A DNA stretch of 12,847 bases. It comes from Gemmatimonadota bacterium (GTDB taxonomy: Bacteria; Gemmatimonadota; Gemmatimonadetes; Gemmatimonadales; GWC2-71-9). Every line of letters starts with the position of its first letter. The first letter of the stretch is position 1. Positions 1 through 12,847 of this stretch are shown one piece after another. A model generated the notes under the pieces. It was given only the letters and a program-made list of their open reading frames with translations, searched no databases and had not been told where the DNA came from. The position numbers and the translations under genes are program-made. The stretch spans positions 1 to 12,847 of the forward strand of contig JBDHDE010000066.1 in NCBI GenBank assembly GCA_039591655.1. The letters run 5' to 3'.

Positions 1-980
1 CCCACGATCTGGCGTGTGATGAGCCGTAGAAAGCTCTGCATGCCGGAAACAGGTGCTCGGAGCTGGTGCACGGAGGTGCGTATGAATTCCGCTCGGCGCC
101 GGTCTGCGTCGCGCAGTCCTTCGTTTGCGGCCTCCAGCGCCTTTGTTGCGGTCTTGATCCTGCTCTCGAGCTCCCCGTTCCAGCGCGCGTGCTCGGCTGC
201 CGCCTTACGGAGCTGTGTGCTCATTGCGTTGAATGCGGAGCAAAGCTGCCCGATCTCGTCATGGCTGGAGACTGGAATCTCCACATCGAGGTCTCCACGC
301 GAGACGCGCTCCGTGCCGCGCAGCAAACGCGTGACAGGCGTCCTCACGAACCGCTGCATGACCAAGGCCACGGCCACCCATGCGAGGAGTACGGCAGCGC
401 TGCCGGAGAGGAGAGCTGCACGGCGGACACTGACGATGCTGGCGTCCACGGTGCGTAGCGAAAAGACCGCATCCAGTACTCCGAGCACCTGCTGGTCCCT
501 GTCATGGCAGTCGTAGCACGGAGGCGCGTTGTATATCGGCGTGATGATGGCAAGCCTGCGTGAGCCGTCGGGGGTGGCGAAGATTCTGCCTCGTTCCAGG
601 GGTGGGCGGAGGACCTGGGGTGGTCCGTCGGCGTGGCACTGGATGCACATCTCGTGTGTCATGTCGACAGTATCGTTTATCTCTGATCTGTCGGTCGAGA
701 GAACGATACTTCCGTCCTTGTCGAAGAGGCGGATCTTCTCGAGCCCGTCTTCTTGGGCATAACCATCGAAGACGCTGAGGATCTCAGCGCGTCTATGGGC
801 GAGCATCTGCGGGCGAATGCTGCGTGCGGCGATGTCGCTCATCCGGCCCGTGTGCAGCACGGCATGCGACAACAGCTGTCGTTCGTGGGTGCCGGCTGTG
901 TGTAACAGCAAGAGGGCGACAGCGGCGAGGAGGATGACCCCGACGACGAGCATGACCCTGAATAGCAGCGAGTGCAGCAC
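1..980 (-). CDS. Membrane sensor histidine kinase with diheme c-type (2x CxxCH) extracytoplasmic domain, HAMP and HisKA; runs off the left edge
   Basis: Translated by hand because it has no stop in the window and is missing from the track. Open from GTG at 980 (AGGT 7 nt upstream, in-frame TAG just before; alternative ATG at 953). TM1 VMLVVGVILLAAVALLLL, CIQCH (633-647), CYDCH (504-518), TM2 AALLSGSAAVLLAWVAVALVM, HAMP PVTRLLRGTERVSRGDLDVEIPVSSHDEIGQLCSAFNAM, coiled coil, H-box EFIRTSVHQLRAPVSGM (His codon 66-68). Confidence 0.9.
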   Translation of the reverse strand, partial: MLHSLLFRVMLVVGVILLAAVALLLLHTAGTHERQLLSHAVLHTGRMSDIAARSIRPQMLAHRRAEILSVFDGYAQEDGLEKIRLFDKDGSIVLSTDRSEINDTVDMTHEMCIQCHADGPPQVLRPPLERGRIFATPDGSRRLAIITPIYNAPPCYDCHDRDQQVLGVLDAVFSLRTVDASIVSVRRAALLSGSAAVLLAWVAVALVMQRFVRTPVTRLLRGTERVSRGDLDVEIPVSSHDEIGQLCSAFNAMSTQLRKAAAEHARWNGELESRIKTATKALEAANEGLRDADRRRAEFIRTSVHQLRAPVSGMQSFLRLITRQIV

Positions 981-1012
981 CTGGGATACCTATCGGCCAG
1001 TGAGGGCCGTTC

Positions 1013-1210
1013 TCAGCTCCCGTCCGTTACAACCTCAGTGACCGTGCGTCGAGTGTAGAGAGACGAGTGACCCTGTTCGTGCCAGAGCTGAACCTCGAAT
1101 CCGGCAGCGGCATACCGCTCCTGCGCCGCGCGTGCCTGTTCCTCGGTCTCGTGGTCCTCGCCATCCCACATGTACTTCTTGCCGTCGAAGAAGCGAACCT
1201 TCTCTGTCAT
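1013..1210 (-). CDS. Small hypothetical protein (65 aa)
   Basis: ATG start with AGGTG upstream; co-oriented and fills the mvhD-kinase gap; natural-looking acidic/aromatic sequence (RFFDGKKYMWDG...GFEVQL...LYTRR). Confidence 0.75.
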   Translation of the reverse strand: MTEKVRFFDGKKYMWDGEDHETEEQARAAQERYAAAGFEVQLWHEQGHSSLYTRRTVTEVVTDGS

Positions 1211-1289
1211 GTCGCACGCACCTGTGCAGTACTACTGTTGCCGGGTTGGCACCACGGCGACTGCCGGCGGCGGTGCAGTAGCAGGCCGC

Positions 1290-1706
1290 TCACACCCGGT
1301 AGGAGCTCGGGCCCAGCTCACGGACTGCCTCGCTCATGTCGCTGACCACCTGCGCGAAGCGAGGCGCCTCGGATGCGGAGATCCACTCGAGCCTGAATCG
1401 CTCTGGTTCGATGCCGAAGTCCTCGAGCATCAGCTCTATCGCCTCCTTGCGCTTCTCCGTCCGCAGATTGCCCTCGAGGTAGTGGCAGTCGCCGGGATGG
1501 CAGCCGCAAATGAGCACGCCGTCTGCTCCCTTGGTCAGGGCGTCAATCACCAGGTTGGGGTGGACCATTCCGGAGCACATGACGCGAATCACGCGCGGAT
1601 CCGGCGGATACTGCAGCCGGGAGACACCTGCGAGGTCCGCGCCGGCGTAGGAGCACCAGTTGCAGCAGAAGGCAATGATGATGGGCTCGAAGTCGTCGTT
1701 TGCCAT
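1290..1706 (-). CDS. mvhD: MvhD/FlpD-family [2Fe-2S] protein (HdrA-associated electron-transfer subunit)
   Basis: Motifs AFCCNWCSYAGADLAG, IRVMCSG, GADGVLICGCHPGDCHY.EGN, ERFRLEWISASE; directly follows hdrA; AGAGGA RBS upstream. Confidence 0.95.
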   Translation of the reverse strand: MANDDFEPIIIAFCCNWCSYAGADLAGVSRLQYPPDPRVIRVMCSGMVHPNLVIDALTKGADGVLICGCHPGDCHYLEGNLRTEKRKEAIELMLEDFGIEPERFRLEWISASEAPRFAQVVSDMSEAVRELGPSSYRV

Positions 1707-1724
1707 GTTCGGAATGATCCTCTA

Positions 1725-4700
1725 TCACGCTTCCTGCAACGCGGCATCGACCATCGCGCTCAACTGATCGAGCCGGAAGTTGCGGATGAATATCCCTTTC
1801 TTGGGACACGTGGCCTGACAGACCCCGCAGCCCTTGCACAAGGCCTCATCCCGCTCGACCGTCTTCTTGATGCTTCCCTTGTGCATGTACTCGATCAGTG
1901 TGAGTGCATTGTACGGGCAGGGGTCGATGCAGTACGCGCATCCATCGCAGTTGTCATCTACCAGTTCGGAGATGGTGGCGTCGAGTTCGATCTCGTCCTT
2001 GGACAGAATCGTAGCTGCTCTTGCGGCGGCAGCGTGGGCCTGTGCGATGCTCTCGTCCACAGACTTGGGCGAGTGTGCCAAGCCGCACATGAAGACCCCG
2101 TCGGTCGCGAAATCAACTGGACGCAGCTTCATGTGTGCCTCGAGGAAGAACCGATCCTGATTGAGAGGCACTTTGAAGAGCTTGCCTACTTCCTCGGCGT
2201 CATTCCTGGGCACGATGGCAGGAGCCAATACCAGTAGGTCGCAGTCGATACGGAGATTCAAGTTCAAGAGCGGGTCGAGGGTAGAGACCTGAAGCCTGCC
2301 GTTGGTCGCGGAGACCTCAGGCTTGCGCTGCTCGTCGTATCGTAGGAAGCGTACGCCCTTGCCTCGTGCATCGGTGTAGTACTGCTCCAGTACGCCGTAC
2401 GTACGGATGTCTCGATAGAGCACATGGACGGCTATGTCCGGGCTGATGCCCTTGAGCGCTATCGCGTTCTTCACCGCCTGCGAACAGCAGATCCGACTGC
2501 AATACGGCCGGGACTCGTCTCTCGAGCCAACGCACTGGATCATGACGACCGACTTGAGTTCGTGGAGCTCTGGTCGGCGCTGGGCGATCCACTCCTCCAG
2601 CTGGCGCTGCGTCAGGACGCGGGGGTGCACGCCGTACAGGTATTCGGTTGGCTCGTAGTGTGTCGCTCCCGTAGCCACGATTGCGACGCCGTGTGCCACT
2701 TGTCTGTCGACGCCGTTGTTTCGAATGGTGGACGTGAAGCTGCCGACGGATCCCTCGACGGCGGCGAGCGAGCTGCTTAGATGGAGCGTGATTCTGGGAT
2801 GATTGGTCACCCTGGCGATCGTCTCTGACAGGTTTTGCCGGGGGTCGCCGCCAGTGAGCAAGCTGTGGATGTGCCTGAGGTTGCCTCCCAAGTCCGGCTC
2901 CCGCTCGACGAGATGGACTGCGAAGCCCTGGTCGGCCAGGTTCAGCGCGGCGATCATGCCAGCCATGCCGCCGCCCAGCACGAGGGCGTCGTTGTTGACC
3001 TTCAAGGTGCCCTTGTCGAGGGGCTCGAGCAGCCTGAGCTTGGCGAGGGCCATTCTCACCAGGTCCTTTGCCTTGCGTGTAGCCTTCTCCGGTTCGTGCA
3101 TGTGTACCCACGTGCACTGGTCGCGGATATTGGCCATGTCGAACAGGTATTCGTTGAGGCCTGCCTCCCGGCACGTGTTGCGGAACAGCGGCTCGTGGGT
3201 GCGCGGGCTGCATGATGCGACCAGCACGCGGTTGAGGTCGTGCTCCGCGATCATCTGCTTGATCGCCTCCTGCGTGTCAGTTGAGCACGTATAGAGGTTG
3301 TCCTCCGCATACACGACGTTGGGCAGGGTCCTGGCGTACTCCACGACAGCCGGGACGTCCGCCACGCCACCGATGTTCTTGCCACAGTGGCAGACGAATA
3401 CCCCGATGCGCGGTTCCTCGCCCCGCACGTCCTTCTCAGGGGGGTACTCCTTCGCCCGGATGAGCGACCCCCGTCCGTCCTCGAGTAGTGCCATCGCCTT
3501 GGAGGCACTCGCCGAGGCCTCCATCACCGTCTCTGGGATATCCTTCGGTCCGGTAAACGGCCCACAGACGTACACCCCCGGGCGTGAGGTCTCGACCGAT
3601 CCTAGGCCCTGAGTTGCCGCAAAGCCATGCTCGTCCAGCTCGATGCCGAACGTGTCCGCCAGCTCGTGTGCCTCAACAGGCGGTGCCAGGCCGGTAGACA
3701 GCACGACCATGTGGAACTCCTCGGTCACGTGCCCAGCGCCGGCCGTCTGGTAGTCGAGGCGAAGATTGTTGTTGGCCGGGACTTCCTTGATCGATGATGG
3801 AGTGCAGCGGACGTACTTGATGCCTAACTCCTTGGCGCGGTTGTAGTAGGCGTCGAAGCCCTTGCCAAAGGCTCGAAGGTCGATGAAGAAGATGGTGCAA
3901 TCGATGTCCGGTTCGTGCTCCTTCGCGATGATGGCTTCTTTGGTCGCGTACATGCAGCAGACCGAGGAGCAGTAGTCCCGATCTGTCTCGCGTGAGCCGA
4001 CGCACTGAATCCACGCGATCTTCTTGGGAGGTGCCTGGTCGGATGGCCTGAGCACCTTCCCTAGGTAAGGTCCGCTTGCCGAGAGGATACGCTCGAACTG
4101 CAGACTGGAGATGACGTTGGGAAACCGTCCGTAGCCGAGTTCTTTCTTGGCGTGGGGGTCGAACTGCTGGAATCCGGGAGCCAGTACTGCGGCGCCGACC
4201 TCGATTCCTTGAATCTCGTCCTGTTGGTCGAAGTCAATGGCGTCGGCCTCACAGAAGCTCGCACACGCTTGGCACGTGCCTCTGAGCAAGTGCATGCACG
4301 TATCGGGGTCGATGGTGGCGACCTTGGGTATGGCTTGCGCGAACGGAAGGTAGATGGACGACCGCCGGGCGAGACCCATGTCGTAGTCCGACGGTATGGG
4401 TCTGGGTTCTAGCAGCGTGACCTTGGACAGATCGACGACGTCGACTGGGCACACTACTTGGCATGCGCCACATGCCATACAGATGGGCGAGTGCTTGTCG
4501 TACGGCGTGGTGATGTTGCGATCTGGACCGCGGTGGGCAAAGTTGATGGCGCCGACCCCCATCCTCTCTTGGCATACCCTGACACAGAGGCCGCACAGAA
4601 TGCAGTTGTCGTGTTTCTTGGGGAACCGGGTCTCGTCGATGCCGAGGTCGAGTGCAAGCTCCTTGACTGCGCGGGCTTCGGGGCACCGGGCGAGCAGCAA

Positions 4701-4970
4701 CTCCACCATCACCTTCCGTGTGCGACGGACCCTCTCGGTGTTGGTACTAACCACTAGTCCGTCCTGAGCCGGATAGACGCAGGAGGCCTCGATCCTCGAG
4801 CCACGTGACATCTCGACTTCCACGAGACATACACGACAGGCGCCGTACGGTGCTAAGGCCCGATGGTGGCAGAGCGTGGGGATCTTGACGCCTGCCTCTT
4901 CAGCAGCCTGTAAGACCGTCCTTCCGGGGTCGACATCGACCTCTATACCGTCAACCGTCAGTCTCGCCAT
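1725..4970 (-). CDS. hdrA: Fusion of a NuoG/HydA-type N-terminal Fe-S domain ([2Fe-2S] + 2x[4Fe-4S]) to a large double-module heterodisulfide reductase subunit A lacking its own first Rossmann motif
   Basis: N-terminus IPTLCHH...GACRVCLVEV...ASC, CILCGLCVRVC, CMACGACQVVCP. HdrA motifs follow: YDMGLARRSSIYLPFAQAIP, GYGRFPNVISSLQFERILSASGP, IQCVGSR..YCSSVCCMYATK, GPKDIPETV, FVCHCGKNIGG, CSPRTHE, NIRDQCTWVH, second Rossmann VLGGGMAG, second IQCVGSR..YCSRICCSQAVK, FLEAHMKLRPVD, C-terminal CDGCAYCIDPCP/CKGCGVCQATCP. ATG 4970 preferred; in-frame GTGs at 4973 and 4979 are possible. Confidence 0.93.
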   Translation of the reverse strand: MARLTVDGIEVDVDPGRTVLQAAEEAGVKIPTLCHHRALAPYGACRVCLVEVEMSRGSRIEASCVYPAQDGLVVSTNTERVRRTRKVMVELLLARCPEARAVKELALDLGIDETRFPKKHDNCILCGLCVRVCQERMGVGAINFAHRGPDRNITTPYDKHSPICMACGACQVVCPVDVVDLSKVTLLEPRPIPSDYDMGLARRSSIYLPFAQAIPKVATIDPDTCMHLLRGTCQACASFCEADAIDFDQQDEIQGIEVGAAVLAPGFQQFDPHAKKELGYGRFPNVISSLQFERILSASGPYLGKVLRPSDQAPPKKIAWIQCVGSRETDRDYCSSVCCMYATKEAIIAKEHEPDIDCTIFFIDLRAFGKGFDAYYNRAKELGIKYVRCTPSSIKEVPANNNLRLDYQTAGAGHVTEEFHMVVLSTGLAPPVEAHELADTFGIELDEHGFAATQGLGSVETSRPGVYVCGPFTGPKDIPETVMEASASASKAMALLEDGRGSLIRAKEYPPEKDVRGEEPRIGVFVCHCGKNIGGVADVPAVVEYARTLPNVVYAEDNLYTCSTDTQEAIKQMIAEHDLNRVLVASCSPRTHEPLFRNTCREAGLNEYLFDMANIRDQCTWVHMHEPEKATRKAKDLVRMALAKLRLLEPLDKGTLKVNNDALVLGGGMAGMIAALNLADQGFAVHLVEREPDLGGNLRHIHSLLTGGDPRQNLSETIARVTNHPRITLHLSSSLAAVEGSVGSFTSTIRNNGVDRQVAHGVAIVATGATHYEPTEYLYGVHPRVLTQRQLEEWIAQRRPELHELKSVVMIQCVGSRDESRPYCSRICCSQAVKNAIALKGISPDIAVHVLYRDIRTYGVLEQYYTDARGKGVRFLRYDEQRKPEVSATNGRLQVSTLDPLLNLNLRIDCDLLVLAPAIVPRNDAEEVGKLFKVPLNQDRFFLEAHMKLRPVDFATDGVFMCGLAHSPKSVDESIAQAHAAAARAATILSKDEIELDATISELVDDNCDGCAYCIDPCPYNALTLIEYMHKGSIKKTVERDEALCKGCGVCQATCPKKGIFIRNFRLDQLSAMVDAALQEA

Positions 4971-5023
4971 CACCCGCACCCTGTGAAAAGCGATGCTCAG
5001 AGCCCGAACGCGCAGCTCGCGGC

Positions 5024-5494
5024 CTATCCCCCCGCCCCTCCGTTCTCCACATCTGTCGTGTCGAAGCGGTACACCTCGTCATCGATCCTGTGCTCGTAAT
5101 GCAGTGCCAGATCCGGTCGCCCCACGAGTATCGTCCGCACAGTTTCACCGATATCACCCACCGGCCTGCAATCCGGATGGCTGCGACGAAAGGATGCCTT
5201 GACAATCGTTCCCTTTCCGCGCCGCGATGTGATCTCAAAGCTCCCTTCGGCCTCCCTGGCGGCCTGCGCCAGCAGTGGCAGCCCCAAACCGACCCGCCGC
5301 GTTGTCCTCGTTGTGAAGAAGGGATCCAGCGCCCTCCTCTTCGTTTCCGCATCCATGCCCTTGCCGTCGTCCTTGATCTCGATTGAGAGCAGGTCCTGCC
5401 TGGTGTCATCCACGATCAGGATCGCGACTCTCCTTGCGGACGCCGCAATGGAATTCTCCACTATATCCAGAATGTGAAGAGCGAGATCTTGCAT
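5024..5494 (-). CDS. Stand-alone HATPase_c (GHKL) protein of the type found in [FeFe]-hydrogenase operons
   Basis: N-box LHILDIVENSIAA, G1 DDGKGMD, F-box DPFFTTR, G2 VGLGLPL, GKGT; no HisKA or sensor domain; ATG abuts the PHP stop (TGAATG). Confidence 0.9.
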   Translation of the reverse strand: MQDLALHILDIVENSIAASARRVAILIVDDTRQDLLSIEIKDDGKGMDAETKRRALDPFFTTRTTRRVGLGLPLLAQAAREAEGSFEITSRRGKGTIVKASFRRSHPDCRPVGDIGETVRTILVGRPDLALHYEHRIDDEVYRFDTTDVENGGAGG

Positions 5495-6211
5495 TCACTG
5501 CTTCACTATTGTGCGACCGTCGGCGTGTCTCAGCGCCTTGGTGATCTCATCGAGCGTAGCCTCCTCGAGCAGAAAACAGGTGAAGCTCCTGCCGATGTCA
5601 TTCAAGGAATGAGCATCGGAGAAGCGGACGACCGGGAAAGGATTCCAGCTGGTGACGGAGGAACGCGGTGATACTTCTACCGCGTCCAGCGGGAGGCCGT
5701 CGGGAATGAAGCCGAGCTGGCCAACGAGTCCGAAGCGCTCGCGGTCGATGTGAGATGCGATCGCCAAGCCTCCGCAGTCGTGGATGGCGTTCACGGTCTG
5801 TTCCAAAGTGAAGCTGGTGGCTCCGATCAAGAGCTTCGCAGTGGAACCCAGTGCGTTGTCGTATTGATCGACCACCGTCTGCGAGCCGAATACATCCTCG
5901 TCGTTCTCCCCAGGGAGGTTGTCGTAGACGAGGTCCTGCATGCACTGCAGCTGGTCCTGGTCCTGGAACAGACCCAGAATGTGGACTTCCTCGCGCGACG
6001 TGATCTCCATCCCCGGTATGATGGGGAGGTTCTGTCGCCGGCCGGCCTGGAGGACGGCACTGACGTTCTCCGCGGAGTTGTGGTCGCAGATGCCGATGAT
6101 ATCGAGGCCCATCTGTTTGGCCTTCTGGATGATCGCAGTCGGCACCATCTCCGGCTCCCCGCAGGGGGAGAGGCAGGTGTGCAAGTGCAAGTCAGCTCGC
6201 ATTTCCCTCAT
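5495..6211 (-). CDS. PHP-domain metal-dependent phosphoesterase
   Basis: ADLHLHTCLSPCG, ICDHNSAEN, GMEITSREEVHIL, ASHIDR, SDAH motifs; ATGA overlap with the upstream DRTGG gene at 6208-6211. Confidence 0.92.
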   Translation of the reverse strand: MREMRADLHLHTCLSPCGEPEMVPTAIIQKAKQMGLDIIGICDHNSAENVSAVLQAGRRQNLPIIPGMEITSREEVHILGLFQDQDQLQCMQDLVYDNLPGENDEDVFGSQTVVDQYDNALGSTAKLLIGATSFTLEQTVNAIHDCGGLAIASHIDRERFGLVGQLGFIPDGLPLDAVEVSPRSSVTSWNPFPVVRFSDAHSLNDIGRSFTCFLLEEATLDEITKALRHADGRTIVKQ

Positions 6212-6585
6212 GAGGCGTGCGCGGGCGATGCTGCGCCCTTGTTGGGCATTCCCCTGATGCCGAGTTTGTAGAGCCGTCCGGCGAGCTCAAATGTGGGGAG
6301 CTCCGATACCATGATCGGTATGTGTTCGACCTGCGCCTTTGCGAGCGTGTCCTCGTCCGGCTCCCTGCCATTGACCAGTATGATCCCCGCAAGATCGTTC
6401 AGGCTCGCCACCGCAACGATGTTCTGATGGCCCTGGAGGGTGATCCAAAGGTCCCCCTTCCTGGCGTGAGCCATGACATCGCTCATCAGGTCACTGGAGT
6501 ATCCGCCGGTGACCTCAGCATCCAGATGATCACTGCCCGTGCGGATCCCCAGAGCGAGTTTGTCAACTACCTCAGCCAGTTTCAC
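6208..6585 (-). CDS. DRTGG-domain (HPr kinase N-terminal-like) protein
   Basis: VTGGYSSDLMSDVMA..KGDLWITLQGHQNIVAVASL, PTFELAGRLY; GTG start with GGAGG RBS, overlapping the end of the upstream kinase gene. Confidence 0.88.
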   Translation of the reverse strand: MKLAEVVDKLALGIRTGSDHLDAEVTGGYSSDLMSDVMAHARKGDLWITLQGHQNIVAVASLNDLAGIILVNGREPDEDTLAKAQVEHIPIMVSELPTFELAGRLYKLGIRGMPNKGAASPAHAS

Positions 6586-7501
6586 GGTGCCCTCCGGTCA
6601 TGATCGAAATCTTGAGGTGCGTGCCTCTGCCTGGTGCGGAGTCGAGTTCCATGCTGTCCGCGCACCTCTGAATGTTGTTGAGTCCCATCCCGGCACCGAA
6701 GCCGAGTTCGCGGACCCACTGCGGCGCGGTGGAATAGCCCGGTCGCAGAGCCTTCTCGACATCGGCGATTCCGGGCCCTGAATCATCCACCTCGACCCTG
6801 ATCTCGCCCGGTCCGACCTGCGCGACGATTGATCCCCCCTTTGTGAACACGATCAGGTTCATCTCCGCCTCGTACGTGGCTATCGCCACTCGGCGAACCG
6901 TGGCGGGATCCAGACCGAGCCGTCGTAGGGTCTGCTTGAGTCGGCTGGAGCTCTCTCCCCCTCGCGCGAAGTCCTGGCCTACCACGCTGTACTCGAACAC
7001 GAGTTTCGTTCGGTCAGCGATGATGTCGTCGAATATGTGACTTGCTCGGTAGTGATGGATCTCCTCTTCGTGATAGTCGATCTCTAGCTTCTTCAGCAGT
7101 CCTGCTATGATGTCGCCCTTCGTGATCACACCGATCAACCGGCCGGAATGTCGGTCAGTCACCGCGAAGCGGCCGAAGCCAGTCTTGTCGAATCTGCTGA
7201 CAGCTTGGACGAGCGGTTCGTCATCGCAGAGAGTCTCAACGTGCTTCGTCATCTTCGCTTCGATGACGGAGTTCTGCTCCTTGCCATAGAGCCACTTGAT
7301 GAAGTCCTCGAGGCTGATGATTCCCACGAGTTTTCCGCCATCGACCACCGGTGCGCCGGAGATTCGTTGCTGCTGGAAGAGCTCCCGCAACTGGCTCATG
7401 GGGGTGTCCGGCCGCACCGTGATCACATCCGTAGTCATCACCTCGCGGACCTTCATCTCGTAAACCAGCTCCTGCACTCTGGTGATTGGTCGGTCCTGCA
7501 C
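6572..7501 (-). CDS. CBS-pair domain fused to an RsbT/RsbW-like anti-sigma-type Ser/Thr kinase (HATPase_c)
   Basis: CBS repeats VREVMTTDVITV...ISGAPVVDGGKLVGIISLEDF and MTKHVETL...LIGVITKGDII; kinase motifs ATYEAEMNLIVF, DDSGPGIADVEKALRPGYST, GAGMGLNNI, GRGT. Exact start (GTG 7501) uncertain. Confidence 0.9.
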   Translation of the reverse strand: MQDRPITRVQELVYEMKVREVMTTDVITVRPDTPMSQLRELFQQQRISGAPVVDGGKLVGIISLEDFIKWLYGKEQNSVIEAKMTKHVETLCDDEPLVQAVSRFDKTGFGRFAVTDRHSGRLIGVITKGDIIAGLLKKLEIDYHEEEIHHYRASHIFDDIIADRTKLVFEYSVVGQDFARGGESSSRLKQTLRRLGLDPATVRRVAIATYEAEMNLIVFTKGGSIVAQVGPGEIRVEVDDSGPGIADVEKALRPGYSTAPQWVRELGFGAGMGLNNIQRCADSMELDSAPGRGTHLKISIMTGGHRETG

Positions 7502-7508
7502 CAGATCT

Positions 7509-7865
7509 CTATTCCCGGAAGTCAGAGACGCCTAGGAGACCGCTCTTGTACAAACGGCCGCAGCTCTCGAACATCGGCAACGTGGTTCTCAGCAAGGGCA
7601 ACCCCTGGACGTCGGCCATTGTCACGGTGTCGTCATCGGGCCTTTTGCCGCGGACGAAGCAGATGGCCACGATGTCGGCCATCTCGGCCGTGCGTACGAC
7701 CTGGGGGTTGGTCAGCCCTGTCAGCAACAGAGAGCCAGGCTTACCGTAGGCGAGGACGTCGCTCATCAAGTCCGCGCCACAGCCCATTGTGAGCTCTCTG
7801 GCGAGCCCGTCCTCGCCGGCTATCACCTCTGCGTCGAGGATCTCCCTAACATCATCGAGTGTCAT
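7509..7865 (-). CDS. DRTGG-domain protein
   Basis: GCGADLMSDVLAY, LLLTGLTNPQVVRTAEMADI..ICFVRGKRP, PMFESCGRLY; AGGAG upstream of the ATG. Confidence 0.9.
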   Translation of the reverse strand: MTLDDVREILDAEVIAGEDGLARELTMGCGADLMSDVLAYGKPGSLLLTGLTNPQVVRTAEMADIVAICFVRGKRPDDDTVTMADVQGLPLLRTTLPMFESCGRLYKSGLLGVSDFRE

Positions 7866-7891
7866 CGTTCTATGAGCGCTCCTCCCTCGCC

Positions 7892-10800
7892 TCAGTCCTC
7901 TGCTTCCCTATCGCACCGTATGCAGCGTTTGGCCTCTGCCACGGCCATCTCCCGGTTGAAGCCCAGTTGGACCTGTTTGAAGGCTCCGGCGCGTTCCGCG
8001 ATTGGCAGCAGAGGCATTTGGGGCTTGTGGAGCTTCTCGATCTCCTCGTCCGTCAGCTCGACCGCCGCGACGTCCAGCGCCGGTCGGGTCACACGGTATT
8101 GTCGAGTGACGGGGTGGCCCTCGATGTAGTTGTGGATCATCTGGGCGGCGATCTTGCCGTGCGCCATGGCGTCCACGACGGTCGAAGGTCCGCTGACGAC
8201 GTCCCCGCCGGCGAAGAGCCCCTCGATTCCCGTATGGAAGGTCTCTGGATCGGCCTCTATCGTGCTCCAGCGGGTGATGTTTAGCCCGTTGCCATCTGCC
8301 AAGGGCCGCACGTCGGGTTCCTGGCCAATGGCCGGGATCAGGGTGTCGATCTCTACTGTGAACTCAGATCCGGCGATTGGAACGGGCCTTCGTCTGCCGC
8401 TCTTGTCGATGTCTCCCAGCTCCATCCTGATGCACTCCAGGCGCGTCAGTCTTCCATCGTCTGACAGCGCCCGTACCGGTGCTACCAGTACCTGAAGGTC
8501 GATGCCCTCCCGGTCGAGCTCCTCGACCTCCTCCTTGGCCGCCGGCATCTCTGCCCTGGTTCGCCTGTAGAGTATCCTGACCTCCTTGCCGAGGCGGCTG
8601 GCCACTCTAGCTGCGTCGACGGCGGCATCCCCTCCGCCAATCACGGCTACCTTCTGCCCGATCGTGATCTCGTGTCCGAGATTCACCGCACGCAGGAAAT
8701 CCACCGCATCGATGACCTGTGGGGAGTCCTCCCCGTCGATATTGAGTCTCAGACCCTTGTGGGCTCCTATGGCGATGAATACCGCGCGATACTGCTCCCT
8801 CAACTCGGACAGTTGGACGTCCCTGCCGACGGTAGTGTTGGTACGGATCTCCACGCCGACGTTGCGGATGGCGTCGATGTCATAGCGGAGGATGTCCTTG
8901 GGCAGCCTGTAGTCCGGGATGCCGGTGGCCAGCATGCCACCTGCGACCGGAAGCGACTCGAAGATGGTCACGCCATATCCTTCGAGGGCCAGATAGTAGG
9001 CGCACGTCAATCCGGCCGGCCCGGAGCCTACGATCGCGACGCTTGCGTCTCTCGGTGGCTTCGGCGGCGGTGTGAGCTGGAGGGCCTGCTCGCGCTCATG
9101 GTCGGCCAGAAACCGCTTGAGCGCCCTGATGGAGATTGCCTCTCCACCTCCTGCGCCGGACCGGCACTTGTCCTCACAAGGTGCCGTACAGACCCTGCCG
9201 CAGATAGCGGGGAGCGGGTTTTCTCGCCTGACGAGCTCCGCGGCCTCGTCGAACCGTCCCTGCGCGATCAGCCCGATGTAGCACGGCACGTCCTGGCCGA
9301 TGGGGCATGTGTGTTGGCACGGAGAGGAGATGATCCCCTTGCAGACAGCCGCCGGACATCTCTTGTGCTCTATGTGTGCCTCATACTCCTCTCTGAAGTG
9401 ACGCAGGGTGCTGAGCACGGGGTTCGGGAGGGTCTGTCCCAGTCCACACATGGAGGCGTCTCTTACGGCCTCTCCCAACTCCTCGAGGAGCGTCAGGTCC
9501 GTCTCTTCCCCTTCTCCGGCAGAGATCTTGTTGAGCAGCCCGAGCAGGACCTCCGAGCCTTCTCGGCAGGCAGTGCACTTGCCACACGATTCGTCATTGG
9601 TGAATTCGAGGAAGTACTTGGCGATATCGACTATGCAGGTATCGTCATCCATGACGACCATACCGCCCGAACCCATGATGGCGCCAACCTCGCTCAGACG
9701 CTCATAGTCGACGGGCATGTCGAGCAGGTGACCCGGAATGAAGCCGCCGGAGGGCCCCCCGGTCTGCACCGCCTTCAACCTCTTCCCGTGAGGGATGCCC
9801 CCGCCGATGTCGTAGATGATCTCCCGCAGGGTGATGCCCATCGGCACCTCGACCAGACCGGCGTTGTGGACGTTGCCTGCCAGGGAGAAGACCTTAGTCC
9901 CTTTTGAAGTATCGGTGCCGAGGGCCGAGAACCACTCGACCCCCCAGTTGATGATGGCCGGGACATTCGCCCAGGTCTCAACGTTGTTGATGCTCGTGGG
10001 GCTGCCCCAGAGGCCGGACTGGACGGGGAACGGAGGACGTACGCGCGGCTCAGGTGCTCTGCCTTCGATGGAAGCGATGAGCGACGTCTCCTCGCCACAT
10101 ACGAAGGCTCCGGCTCCCTGGAAGATCTCCAGGTCGAAGCCGAAGCCGGTACCGAGGATGTCCTCTCCCAGCAATCCGTATTCATACGCCTGTCTGGCAG
10201 CACCCTCCAGCCGCTCAATGGCCAGTGGGTACTCGATCCTCACGTAGACGTATCCCCTGGATGCTCCCATGGCGTATGCGCCGATTGCCATGCCCTCGAG
10301 GACGGAGTGGGGGTCGGCCTCGATGATGCTACGGTCCATGAAGGCTCCGGGGTCGCCCTCGTCGGCATTGCAGATGACGTATTTTGGTGCGCCTTCGGAG
10401 CCCCGGCACAGCTCCCATTTCAAGCCCGTCGGGAATCCGGCGCCGCCTCTGCCCCGGAGACCGGATCGCTTTACCGCTGCGATGACCTCCTCCGGTGTCA
10501 TGGAGGTCAGAGCCTTGGCCAGCGCCTTGTAGCCGTCCCTCGCGATGTACTCCTCGACCTTATCCGGATCGATCATGCCGCGATTCCGTAGAGCGACGAG
10601 TCTCTGATCCTTGAAGAACGGAATCGCCCGCAGTTCCGGGATCGGCGCCTCCTCCCCAGGAAGCGCGTACATCAGCGATGTGACCGGTCTTCCCTTCAGG
10701 AGGTGCTCCTCTACCAAGTGGGGGATGTCTTCCCTCTTGAGACGCTGGTAGAAGATCCCGTCAGGCTGGACTACCAGGATCGGACCTCTCACGCAGAGAC

Positions 10801-10945
10801 CGCTGGCTCCGGTGGGTACTACCAGGACATCGTCCTGCAAGCCGCGCCGGAGTATCTCGGCTTCCAGGGCGTTTTTGATCTGCAAGGAGCCGTTCGAGAT
10901 GCAGTTCGTGCAGGTGCATATCATCGCGTTGGCTCTATATGGCAT
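7892..10945 (-). CDS. NuoF/HydB-like NADH:FMN subunit fused to a GltD/NfnB-like FAD/NAD(P)H oxidoreductase domain
   Basis: N-terminal thioredoxin-like domain; [72 protein letters not shown]...[17 protein letters not shown]; then [78 protein letters not shown], terminal [17 protein letters not shown]. Confidence 0.93.
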
Positions 10946-10959
10946 CGCGCTACGTCTCC

Positions 10960-11346
10960 TTACAGGCTTCTCTCGCTGCCTGCTGCCAGCGCGTATTCCG
11001 CAACGATCTTGCCGCCAAGGACGTGCTCCACCAGAATTCTCCTGGCCTTCTCGGGAGTCAGGTCCACGTACTTCACTGCCGGCTCATCCTGCAACTCGAC
11101 TGTAATCATGGGCTCCCGGCTACAAAGACCGGCGCAACTGGAGATCGTCAGGACGACGTCCTCGGTCTTCCTGTCCTCTAGCTCGTCCATTAGCGCCTTC
11201 ATTACGGTCCTGGCGCCCGCGGCTATACCGCAGGTGCCCATGTGGACGACGACCTTGGCTCGTGCGACGCCTCCTTCCCGCATGAGCATCGTTCGCTTGA
11301 TCTTCTCGCCAATCCTGTCCAAGTCGCCAGGTTGGATCTTTGGCAT
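10960..11346 (-). CDS. Thioredoxin-like (2Fe-2S) ferredoxin-family subunit, HydD/HndB-like
   Basis: VVVHMGTCGIAAGAR...SSCAGLCSREP...YVDLTPEKARRILVEHVLGGKIV; lies between nuoE- and nuoF-like genes as in tetrameric hyd/hnd operons; GGAG RBS. Confidence 0.9.
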   Translation of the reverse strand: MPKIQPGDLDRIGEKIKRTMLMREGGVARAKVVVHMGTCGIAAGARTVMKALMDELEDRKTEDVVLTISSCAGLCSREPMITVELQDEPAVKYVDLTPEKARRILVEHVLGGKIVAEYALAAGSERSL

Positions 11347-11361
11347 CGTGCCACTCCGTGC

Positions 11362-12240
11362 CTATCTGTAGTCTCTGAGGAGCTCCGGAACCCCGGTCTC
11401 CCTCATATATCCGAAGACGTCCTCGTCGACCGTTACAACCGGTGACTGACCGCAGCAGCCCAAGCAGTTGACTAGCTCCAGGCCGAACTGCATGTCATTG
11501 GTTACTCCACCGACGTCGATGTTCAGGTGCTTTCGAGACGCCCTCAGGATCCTCTTTCCGCCCTTGACATAGCATGCCGTTCCCATGCAGACGCGGAGGA
11601 GATGCTTGCCCTTCGGAGTGAGGCTGAAGGCGTTGTAGAAGGTGGCCAACCGGTATGCCAGGCTGAGAGGAATGTCCAGCTCTTCCGAGAGATACCGGAC
11701 AGCGGCCTCCGGCAGGTAGTTGTAGAGCTCTTGTGCCTCCTGGAGGACAGGTACAATCGCTCCCCTGCGACCCCGGTACTTGTCTACGATCTGTCGGAGG
11801 CTGCCCAGTTCCTCTGGCAGCGGTTCAGCGGCGGGCCTTCCGGCCGGTTCGAGATAGGGCCTATTCCTGACGAGGCAGTGTTGGACACACTCTGCACATC
11901 CCGTGCACTTGTCTGGATCGACGAAGCGTGCCTTCTTCCTCACCCGCACCTTGAAGCCGCCGGCTGCTCCTTCGATGGACTCAACCTCGGAGTAGGTGAG
12001 CTTCTCGATATTGAGGTGGCCACCGCAGTCGACCATGCGCGGGGCGAGGGTGCACATGGCGCAGTCATTCGTCGGGAAGGTCTTGTCGAGCTGGGCCATG
12101 ACACCGCCGATCGAGGGGCCCTTCTCGACGAGATAGACCTTGTAGCCGGACTCGGCGAGGTCGATGGACGCCTGCATACCTCCCACTCCGCCGCCGACCA
12201 CTAGTACGGCGCCGATTTTCTGGCCGTTGTCGTTAGCCAT
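11362..12240 (-). CDS. Fusion of an HdrA N-terminal fragment (Rossmann FAD motif, DKTFPTNDCAMC, one [4Fe-4S] motif) to a NuoE/HydC [2Fe-2S] subunit, 292 aa
   Basis: ATG at 12240 with GGAGGA RBS, overlapping the hdrB end by 8 nt. AVLVVGGGVGGMQASIDLAESGYKVYLVEK, QLDKTFPTNDCAMC, RFVDPDKCTGCAECVQHC, Pro/Ala linker, then IVPVLQEAQELYNYLP, ATFYNAFSLTPKGKH, VCMGTACYVKG, VNCLGCCGQSP. Confidence 0.93.
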   Translation of the reverse strand: MANDNGQKIGAVLVVGGGVGGMQASIDLAESGYKVYLVEKGPSIGGVMAQLDKTFPTNDCAMCTLAPRMVDCGGHLNIEKLTYSEVESIEGAAGGFKVRVRKKARFVDPDKCTGCAECVQHCLVRNRPYLEPAGRPAAEPLPEELGSLRQIVDKYRGRRGAIVPVLQEAQELYNYLPEAAVRYLSEELDIPLSLAYRLATFYNAFSLTPKGKHLLRVCMGTACYVKGGKRILRASRKHLNIDVGGVTNDMQFGLELVNCLGCCGQSPVVTVDEDVFGYMRETGVPELLRDYR

Positions 12241-12847
12241 TGACCCGTCCTCCGACCTGCCACCCTCCGGCGGCGACGCCCGAGAGCAACTCGTCGGCAC
12301 TCACGAAGTGCCGTTGTATTCCCAGCCGGTCAGGTGGTATCCCGAGAGCCAGCCCAATGAGCTGGGTGAAGTGGAACACCGGCATGTGGTACTGTGACTC
12401 GTACCTCACCTCGATCTCTGCTTGCCGCGTGTCGAGATTCGCGTGACACAGCGGGCAGGCTGCGGCGATCGCGTTTGCACCGACTGCCTTGGCGTTTTCC
12501 AGGATGTCGTGCGTCAGCTTGAGCACCACGTCGGTCTCGGTGAGAGCAAACGCTCCGCCGCAGCACTCGGTCTTGTAGGACCAGTCCAGCGTTGCGATGC
12601 CCAGCGCCTGAAGCAGGCGATCCATGCTCATTGGGTACTCGCACTCGTCGAACTGCATGACCTCGGGTGGCCTCGTGAGCAGGCAGCCGTAATAGCAGAC
12701 GACCTTCAATTCGGGAAGCGCGGTGGTCACGGCGGTCCCCACATCCGACGTGTCGAAGATCTCCAGCGGGTGCAGCACCCTGACTTCGGTCGGGAGGGGA
12801 GCGTCGATGACCTGGGTGAGTTGGTTCCCGAGCTCGGGATCCGCAGC
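12233..12847 (-). CDS. hdrB: Heterodisulfide reductase subunit B (CCG-domain protein), 5'-truncated by the window edge
   Basis: Frame open from the right edge (AADPELGNQLTQVIDAPSPTEVRVLHPLE...). Motifs VVCYYGCLLTRP, DWSYKTECCGG, AACPLCHANLDTRQ, PVFHFTQLIGLALG. Confidence 0.92.
   Translation of the reverse strand, partial: AADPELGNQLTQVIDAPLPTEVRVLHPLEIFDTSDVGTAVTTALPELKVVCYYGCLLTRPPEVMQFDECEYPMSMDRLLQALGIATLDWSYKTECCGGAFALTETDVVLKLTHDILENAKAVGANAIAAACPLCHANLDTRQAEIEVRYESQYHMPVFHFTQLIGLALGIPPDRLGIQRHFVSADELLSGVAAGGWQVGGRVNG

Follow-up and report, generated by a model that had tools for sequence, protein, structure and literature searches.

A tandem HdrA split between two chains by a Bfu-type cassette, encoded near NiFe-hydrogenase genes in a Gemmatimonadota genome

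The locus analysed was the entire contig C66 (JBDHDE010000066.1; 12,847 nucleotides, hereafter the window) of a Gemmatimonadota genome of 3.3 Mb, 149 contigs and 95% completeness. It carries on its minus strand a single co-directional gene run from hdrB through mvhD, with intergenic gaps of −14 to 79 bp. The first of two HdrA modules is divided between two chains, whose HdrA pieces are fused to NuoE- and NuoG-like parts. Contigs of the host assembly are labelled C66, C22, C11, C19, C68 and C87; G009 and G010 are same-genus genomes, and L numbers denote compared loci. The features of the window and of the adjoining contig C22 are:

12233..12847, minus strand: hdrB, 3' part only (contig end), second CCG motif intact
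11362..12240, minus strand: chain 1, 292 aa, N-terminal piece of HdrA module 1 fused to NuoE/HydC/BfuC
10960..11346, minus strand: thioredoxin-like [2Fe-2S] ferredoxin subunit, presumably HydD/HndB-like, by name
7892..10945, minus strand: BfuB/HydB-type FMN subunit with a GltD/NfnB-type FAD/NADP domain, 1017 aa
7509..7865, minus strand: DRTGG-domain protein, accessory
6572..7501, minus strand: CBS-pair and HATPase protein, anti-sigma-factor-like, accessory
6208..6585, minus strand: second DRTGG-domain protein, accessory
5495..6211, minus strand: PHP-domain protein, accessory
5024..5494, minus strand: stand-alone HATPase_c protein, accessory
1725..4979, minus strand: chain 2, 1084 aa, NuoG/BfuA N-terminus, rest of HdrA module 1 and HdrA module 2
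1290..1706, minus strand: mvhD (FlpD family)
1013..1210, minus strand: conserved 65-aa protein of no known family
1..980, minus strand: sensor histidine kinase, continuing off the contig end into C22
C22, between the kinase and mvhG: response regulator
C22:1041-1997, same direction as the operon: mvhG
C22:2010-3449, same direction as the operon: mvhA
C22:3582-4103, same direction as the operon: hydrogenase maturation protease

The gene content agreed with an earlier note on this DNA, which had described one operon with hdrB, NuoE-, NuoF-, NuoG- and GltD/NfnB-like modules, two HdrA modules and mvhD. Its four predicted flavin sites, one flavin mononucleotide (FMN) and three flavin adenine dinucleotide (FAD), were in line with the domain content, and no catalytic domain was found after the NuoG-like domain, as it had stated. 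It had overlooked the five accessory genes (two DRTGG, CBS-HATPase, PHP and HATPase) and the thioredoxin-like ferredoxin within the operon. Promoter and terminator scans of the locus gave no signal above shuffled sequences, and the sole RNA run contributed a small share, in short pieces only.

The division of HdrA was located by alignment. Chain 1 aligned to HdrA (5odc_A) over 146-258 and then to HydC/NuoE, while HdrA resumed in chain 2 at 5odc_A 246-497. The HdrA piece of chain 1 contains the GxGxxG FAD motif, C60/C63, and the first CxxCxxCxxxC motif of the inserted ferredoxin domain, directly after which the break point lies, at an identical position in every split locus aligned. Chain 2 begins with a BfuA-type domain with one [2Fe-2S] and two [4Fe-4S] clusters and without the His-ligated A3 motif (top match 9mqx_A). 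It continues with the remainder of HdrA module 1, which holds the second ferredoxin motif, E296 and K347, and ends with module 2, which has N- and C-terminal Fe-S domains. HdrA is a tandem, and the inserted domain of its split module 1 is fused to BfuA and BfuC, unlike the single-chain HdrA protomer with a free domain.

The ligands around the junction are conserved. Invariance was counted over 20 chain-1 and 22 chain-2 sequences. Chain 1 has one of the four ferredoxin motifs around the junction and chain 2 has the other three; each of their 16 cysteines was invariant. The simplest reading would be that the two middle motifs belong to the BfuA domain and that the outer pair restores the inserted domain of HdrA across the chains. 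The FAD site is divided as well, with GxGxxG and C60/C63 on chain 1 and E296 and K347 on chain 2. K347, invariant in 22 sequences, aligned with Lys409 of 5odc_A, a ligand of the bifurcating FAD, and E296 is taken to be the equivalent of HdrA Glu356. The [4Fe-4S] cysteines of the TrxR domain (C326, C337, C341 and C342) were also invariant in 22 sequences. The earlier note had placed the Hdr and Nuo-like parts in one complex. This is very likely, given that the two halves of the split HdrA are joined to NuoE and NuoG; the ferredoxin domain and FAD site shared across the chains are the strongest sequence-level evidence for a single complex. HdrA occupies the slot of the HydA catalytic domain, as had been proposed. 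Databases label the split halves NuoE or HdrA, which is an annotation trap, and contig breaks can hide the catalytic subunits of such operons.

The operon had also been described as hydrogenase-free. This was wrong: NiFe-hydrogenase genes lie just beyond the contig break. The reverse complement of C66 shares an exact 114-bp overlap with the start of C22, which is the sole overlap for that end of C66 (position 1). Among the 149 contigs there are 58 end-to-end overlaps, mostly of 114 bp, and the 114-mer of C66 and C22 is present only at those two ends. The histidine kinase reading frame stays open across the overlap, and a 2100-bp contig of an independent assembly (run X1) spans window positions 1-1854 and C22 1-360. 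In G010, the genes from hdrC through the maturation protease lie on a single contig, and the G009 contig extends to mvhG. The claim that nothing catalytic lies beside mvhD held for its direct neighbours, the 65-aa open reading frame and the histidine kinase; it failed at a slightly larger distance, where mvhG starts 2215 bp past the mvhD stop, followed by mvhA and the maturation protease. At the genomic level, a hydrogenase catalytic subunit is encoded nearby, a finding that the note had named as contrary to its proposal; it lies downstream rather than upstream, where the note had expected any such gene.

MvhG (318 aa) had the MvhG of 5odc as its top match (E 1.9e-57), above the 179-aa HydS of 7t2r. 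MvhA retains both CxxC nickel motifs and scored similarly against VhuA, HydL and MvhA. hypD is located on C68. The NuoF-GltD protein retrieved 80 metagenome loci, 20 of them close homologues (≥67%), and mvhG was present in all 10 of the close homologues that extend past mvhD. MvhA carries TSICGVC where relatives have PRICGVC, a variant common to 10 of 21 close MvhA sequences. At C22:2-1009, the kinase is fused in frame to the response regulator in the host assembly. Contigs of runs X1 and X3 carry 98 additional bases at C22:535/536, and G010 has separate kinase and regulator genes; the in-frame fusion is a deletion or a misassembly. An [FeFe]-family match on C11 (L093:5781-7697) was rejected as a partner, being an FeFe-like domain fused to GGDEF; that fusion is a possible sensor. 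No match to the AOR family of tungsten BamB (PF01314) was found across the 95% complete genome.

The docking of the hydrogenase was investigated with a tree of 73 HdrA rows, each including a complete second module (FastTree, SH-like support, midpoint root), from which no order of events is claimed. The inserted domain of tandem HdrA occurs in four types: empty (a), with an in-frame GltD of the HdrL type (b), with a Bfu cassette (c), and with the cassette plus GltD on BfuB, as in the window (d). These types interleave on the tree, with 19 changes against 40 when shuffled. The starred branches force at least three changes for type d and 7-8 for the other types. In the 32-row clade that contains the window (support 98), close mvhG or mvhA (≥55%) lies nearby in 29 rows; of the other three, L011 and L081 reach locus ends and L014 has a more distant mvhDGA. 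The 41 rows outside the clade have no close mvhG or mvhA within the DNA examined and distant copies in six. The rows are related by descent and share features, so the association between clade and mvhGA is a non-independent test. The hydrogenase likely docks on MvhD/HdrA rather than on Bfu, because types a and b, which are without Bfu, retain MvhGA. Downstream of mvhD, other split loci carry MetVF (L028), Flx-like (L040 and L048) or Fdh-type genes (L037 and L021).

The split design is widespread. Chain 1 matched 2693 protein clusters at E ≤ 1e-60 among 7999 scored, with a coverage of 77-100% in the 120 matches listed, among which the closest named one was from a Gemmatimonadales metagenome-assembled genome (84%). 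A plasmid search gave no full-length fusion. Among 79 genome loci, the fused chain 1 is present in 19. In 12, the HdrA N-piece is a separate gene, in which an in-frame TGA, probably selenocysteine, occupies the second Cys position of DCAMC. Split loci were found in Spirochaetota, Planctomycetota, Ignavibacteriota, Bacillota, Cloacimonadota, Acidobacteriota, Desulfobacterales and one archaeon.

The Bfu arm has an atypical core. Residues 3-540 of BfuB had A. mobile HydB (7t2r_B) as the top match, and the FMN, SLBB and [4Fe-4S] B1 domains and the BfuC [2Fe-2S] are all present. The C-terminal 2[4Fe-4S] domain B3/B4, the ferredoxin site, belongs to the Bfu family definition in the available part of PMC9304861. 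In the window, this domain is swapped for a GltD domain (residues ~540-1017), as it is in G009, G010, L014 and L015; B3/B4 was kept in the other BfuB tails aligned. The top matches of the GltD domain were the NADP domains of Nfn-Bfu and Stn, and its YRR motif presumably fits NADP. The accessible text of PMC7311640 gives A/E..M, Phe for Tyr, and GGPSG as residues of bifurcating-type BfuB. The BfuB of the window carries such signature residues, including GGPSG, and we infer that the Phe/Tyr site corresponds to GAFVCGEE; two NuoF paralogues in the genome are without the first two signature motifs. Of the B2 ligands (C438, C476 or Thr, H525, C531 and C536), four of five are kept, with Ser at the C476 position. 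Ser occurs there also in BfuB sequences retaining B3/B4, and Thr is common. The third B5 Cys is Ala in the subclade of the window, which has an extra N-terminal Cys.

These features bear on two other proposals of the earlier note. It had named ferredoxin as a coupled substrate, and this is weakened for free ferredoxin, with B3/B4 absent and the HdrA ferredoxin domain taken by the Bfu arm. The idea that three bifurcation families meet in the operon is weakened too. No NfnA-like gene was found in the operon, to which the search for NfnA was confined; the GltD domain is nearest to Nfn-Bfu/Stn NADP domains, and the second HdrA FAD is, by analogy with BamE, likely non-bifurcating. NuoF-GltD fusions without split HdrA were found in 60 of the 80 metagenome loci. 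Those at L119-L176 (~45% identity), with nuoE, nuoF-gltD, NuoG-like, and small then large hydrogenase subunit as a frequent order, may represent an NADP-linked Hox-type hydrogenase.

The high-potential branch is incomplete in the window. hdrC and the 5' part of hdrB were not found in the host assembly. Both precede the operon in G010, where HdrB has both CCG motifs, whereas the window holds the second CCG only. At L013:8845-9996 and L014:8770-9981, a ~390-aa 4Fe-4S protein stands in place of hdrCB. It seems QmoC-like, judging by size and start, and the high-potential branch may lead to the membrane there. In the host genome, C19:5806-8009 encodes in a row what we take to be a flavoprotein, a single-Cys DsrC/TusE-family protein and a presumably DsrE-like product; this is a possible sulfane-sulfur relay and candidate HdrB partner. 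On C87 (L095:381-7564), class I benzoyl-CoA-reductase-like genes, one above the bzdQ cut-off, surround a NuoG-N/GltD oxidoreductase, and the host may degrade aromatics anaerobically.

In the reading we prefer, with about evenly balanced confidence, the products would assemble into a single soluble complex, MvhAGD-HdrA(split)-HdrCB-BfuABC, in which oxidation of H2 would drive the reduction of a disulfide together with NAD+ and NADP+. H2 electrons would enter via MvhAGD, and the first FAD of the split HdrA would bifurcate them. The high-potential electrons would pass through HdrCB to the disulfide; the other branch would run via the inserted ferredoxin domain to the Bfu-GltD arm and on to NAD+ and NADP+. 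The net reaction would be 4 H2 + 2 RSSR + NAD+ + NADP+ → 4 RSH + NADH + NADPH. H2 at 10 Pa has a potential of about −296 mV (computed from published potentials), which is above that of NADP (−380 mV) and insufficient alone, and sufficient if paired with a −140 mV acceptor. If the scheme is true, the cell could make NADPH from trace H2, which is itself unable to reduce NADP+ directly. A bolder and rather doubtful extension is that the inserted ferredoxin domain of tandem HdrA serves as an exchangeable socket. The window would then encode a closed, ferredoxin-free, double-bifurcating hydrogenase, in which HdrA feeds an NAD+/NADP+-bifurcating Bfu site via two [4Fe-4S] clusters shared by two chains, in the order opposite to that of class II benzoyl-CoA reductase (BCRII).

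Several points weigh against the proposed complex. With B3/B4 absent, Ser at C476 and Ala at B5, Bfu bifurcation may have been lost. The match of MvhA to A. mobile HydL, which docks on the Bfu module, is equally good. The kinase and regulator intervene between mvhD and mvhG, whose co-transcription is putative. The host assembly lacks hdrC. As regards a substrate for HdrB, dsrA was not found in the 95% complete genome, and the only DsrC-family protein in the genome has a single C-terminal Cys. The direction of the reaction is not readable from sequence, and loci reaching the ends of the fetched DNA were covered in part only.

The same complex could run in reverse as a fermentation sink, which we consider unlikely. 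The Bfu arm would then confurcate NADH and NADPH into the inserted domain of HdrA, from which electrons would be bifurcated to H2 through MvhD-MvhAG and to HdrCB. Proteins of the HdrL type, in which GltD is inserted into this domain, have been proposed to take in electrons from NAD(P)H; in BCRII, electrons enter through the Bfu module; and the genome has five POR-family matches. The MetVF, Flx-like or Fdh genes on the MvhD side of other split loci indicate that this side can be an output. Reversal would invert the structure-based roles, however, in which the inserted domain is the low-potential output and MvhD the input, and NADH and NADPH, with a mean of about −330 mV, would be a poor donor at the low-potential port.

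A slightly less probable alternative keeps one complex with one or zero working coupling sites. The Bfu-GltD arm would be a plain NAD(P)H dehydrogenase or transhydrogenase, and the entire assembly would act as a soluble hydrogenase that reduces NAD(P) and carries Hdr as a side branch. The loss of B3/B4 and the altered B2 and B5 ligands would favour such a non-coupling arm, as would the NuoF-GltD fusions without split HdrA (60 of 80 loci), many of them near Hox-like hydrogenase genes. It is opposed by the retained bifurcating-type signature residues and B2 His/Cys ligands and by the tolerance of Ser or Thr at C476 noted above.

It is very unlikely that the complex is hydrogenase-free, linking a disulfide and ferredoxin to NADH and NADPH while the nearby MvhGA works separately. 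MvhD is the adaptor of MvhAG, mvhGA lies downstream in every readable close homologue and tracks the HdrA clade, and neither of the usual ferredoxin sites is present and free. The two-component system between mvhD and mvhG would suit separate enzymes, as would L015, where mvhGA is 8-11 kb off on the opposite strand. Split-HdrA loci outside the clade of the window are without close mvhGA, but loci without Mvh mostly carry another catalytic partner after mvhD. That the split is a broken hdrA, left by insertion of a hydrogenase cassette with pieces that do not reassemble, is hardly credible: the cassette and accessory genes do sit insertion-like within the hdrA frame in a low-GC island, but the split point and all ligands are kept across many phyla, chain 1 has the thousands of clusters counted above, and the 12 loci with the in-frame TGA keep the N-piece as its own gene.

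The proposed complex is encoded in a region low in GC, and the tetranucleotide profile of C66 was the most deviant among 94 contigs. Of 10 same-genus genomes, two had the fusion, and it was absent from all 50 of the other related genomes. Low GC and sparse presence suggest an acquired island. Misbinning of C66 was rejected, since it joins C22, whose GC climbs from 0.61 to a host-like 0.66-0.70 after 4 kb, and since the fusion recurs within the genus. The 65-aa protein was present in 17 of 95 loci, every one with tandem hdrA/mvhD and the majority also with mvhGA, and it is kept beside tandem hdrA/mvhD regardless of HdrA insert type. It is a candidate subunit or assembly factor; an ESM Atlas search with it returned unnamed clusters only. 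The DRTGG/CBS-HATPase/PHP/HATPase block (window 5024-7865) lies inside the Bfu cassette here and adjoins mvhGA and the protease in the genome of L015 (L177:6647-13433). It is likely regulatory for H2 metabolism, and no published description of it was found in literature searches.

BCRII, which the earlier note had chosen for comparison, proved to be the appropriate system. It is the Bam[(BC)2DEFGHI]2 complex of Geobacter metallireducens (bioRxiv 10.64898/2026.04.10.717634), and Bam-Bfu is treated in PMC9304861, as far as the available parts of both sources go. In the accessible part of the preprint, only the first of the two BamE FADs bifurcates, Bfu delivers electrons to the input side, the inserted domain supplies BamBC, and two distinct bifurcation modules in one complex are stated to be previously unreported. 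Both systems combine Bfu with a fused-dimer HdrA, an adaptor of the MvhD type and a high-potential branch of the HdrBC type; in both, module 1 has a CxxC near residue 60 and BfuA is without A3. In BCRII, a separate Bfu module feeds the C-terminal ferredoxin domain and BamF, whereas here the fusion places Bfu at the inserted domain. The inserted domain of BCRII feeds tungsten BamBC, whereas here the MvhD side has MvhGA and the genome is without an AOR-family gene. HdrA is split here, the G010 HdrB keeps both CCG motifs, and GltD replaces B3/B4 on BfuB.

With methanogenic HdrABC-MvhAGD (PDB 5ODC), the system shares the HdrA Lys409/Glu356 equivalents, HdrB, HdrC (G010), MvhD, an MvhG of three-cluster size and MvhA. 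HdrA is a split tandem pseudo-dimer here and a homodimer there; here the ferredoxin-reducing domain is hard-wired to the Bfu/NAD(P) arm, and the host is bacterial. HdrL and ANME-1 HdrA9-11, as described in the available parts of PMC2702500 and PMC9012536, likewise have a nicotinamide module in the inserted ferredoxin domain and mvhD adjacent. In HdrL, a single in-frame GltD/NfnB insert lies ~35 residues deeper within one HdrA chain, whereas here a multi-gene Bfu cassette splits the gene and GltD is on the NuoF chain. Nfn-Bfu/Stn (PDB 9BOV, 9N5U and 8OH5) shares the BfuBC core and a GltD-type NADP domain. In Nfn-Bfu, that domain is on BfuA, the mid-potential arm, with B3/B4 kept; here it takes the place of B3/B4 on BfuB, and BfuA is joined to HdrA. 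NiFe-Bfu HydABCSL (PDB 7T2R) provides the top match of BfuB (7t2r_B) and has a short HydS and no Hdr.

The modules are each known, BCRII already combines HdrA with Bfu, and the accessible part of PMC2702500 describes GltD inserts in the inserted domain. Searches that covered the subscription literature in part found no publication that describes a split HdrA, MvhAG-Hdr-Bfu or the substitution of GltD for B3/B4; the split is not described in the available portions of PMC7325909, PMC5736913, PMC11237513, PMC12142623 and 10.1101/2024.09.26.615249. The locus would make testable the electron exit from the inserted ferredoxin domain of HdrA, Bfu bifurcation without a ferredoxin domain, and the substrate of a non-methanogen HdrB, and H2 is a convenient substrate for studying paired HdrA and Bfu modules. 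The comparison points to a second, widespread arrangement of HdrA and Bfu modules, which would be fixed by gene fusion and wired opposite to that of BCRII.

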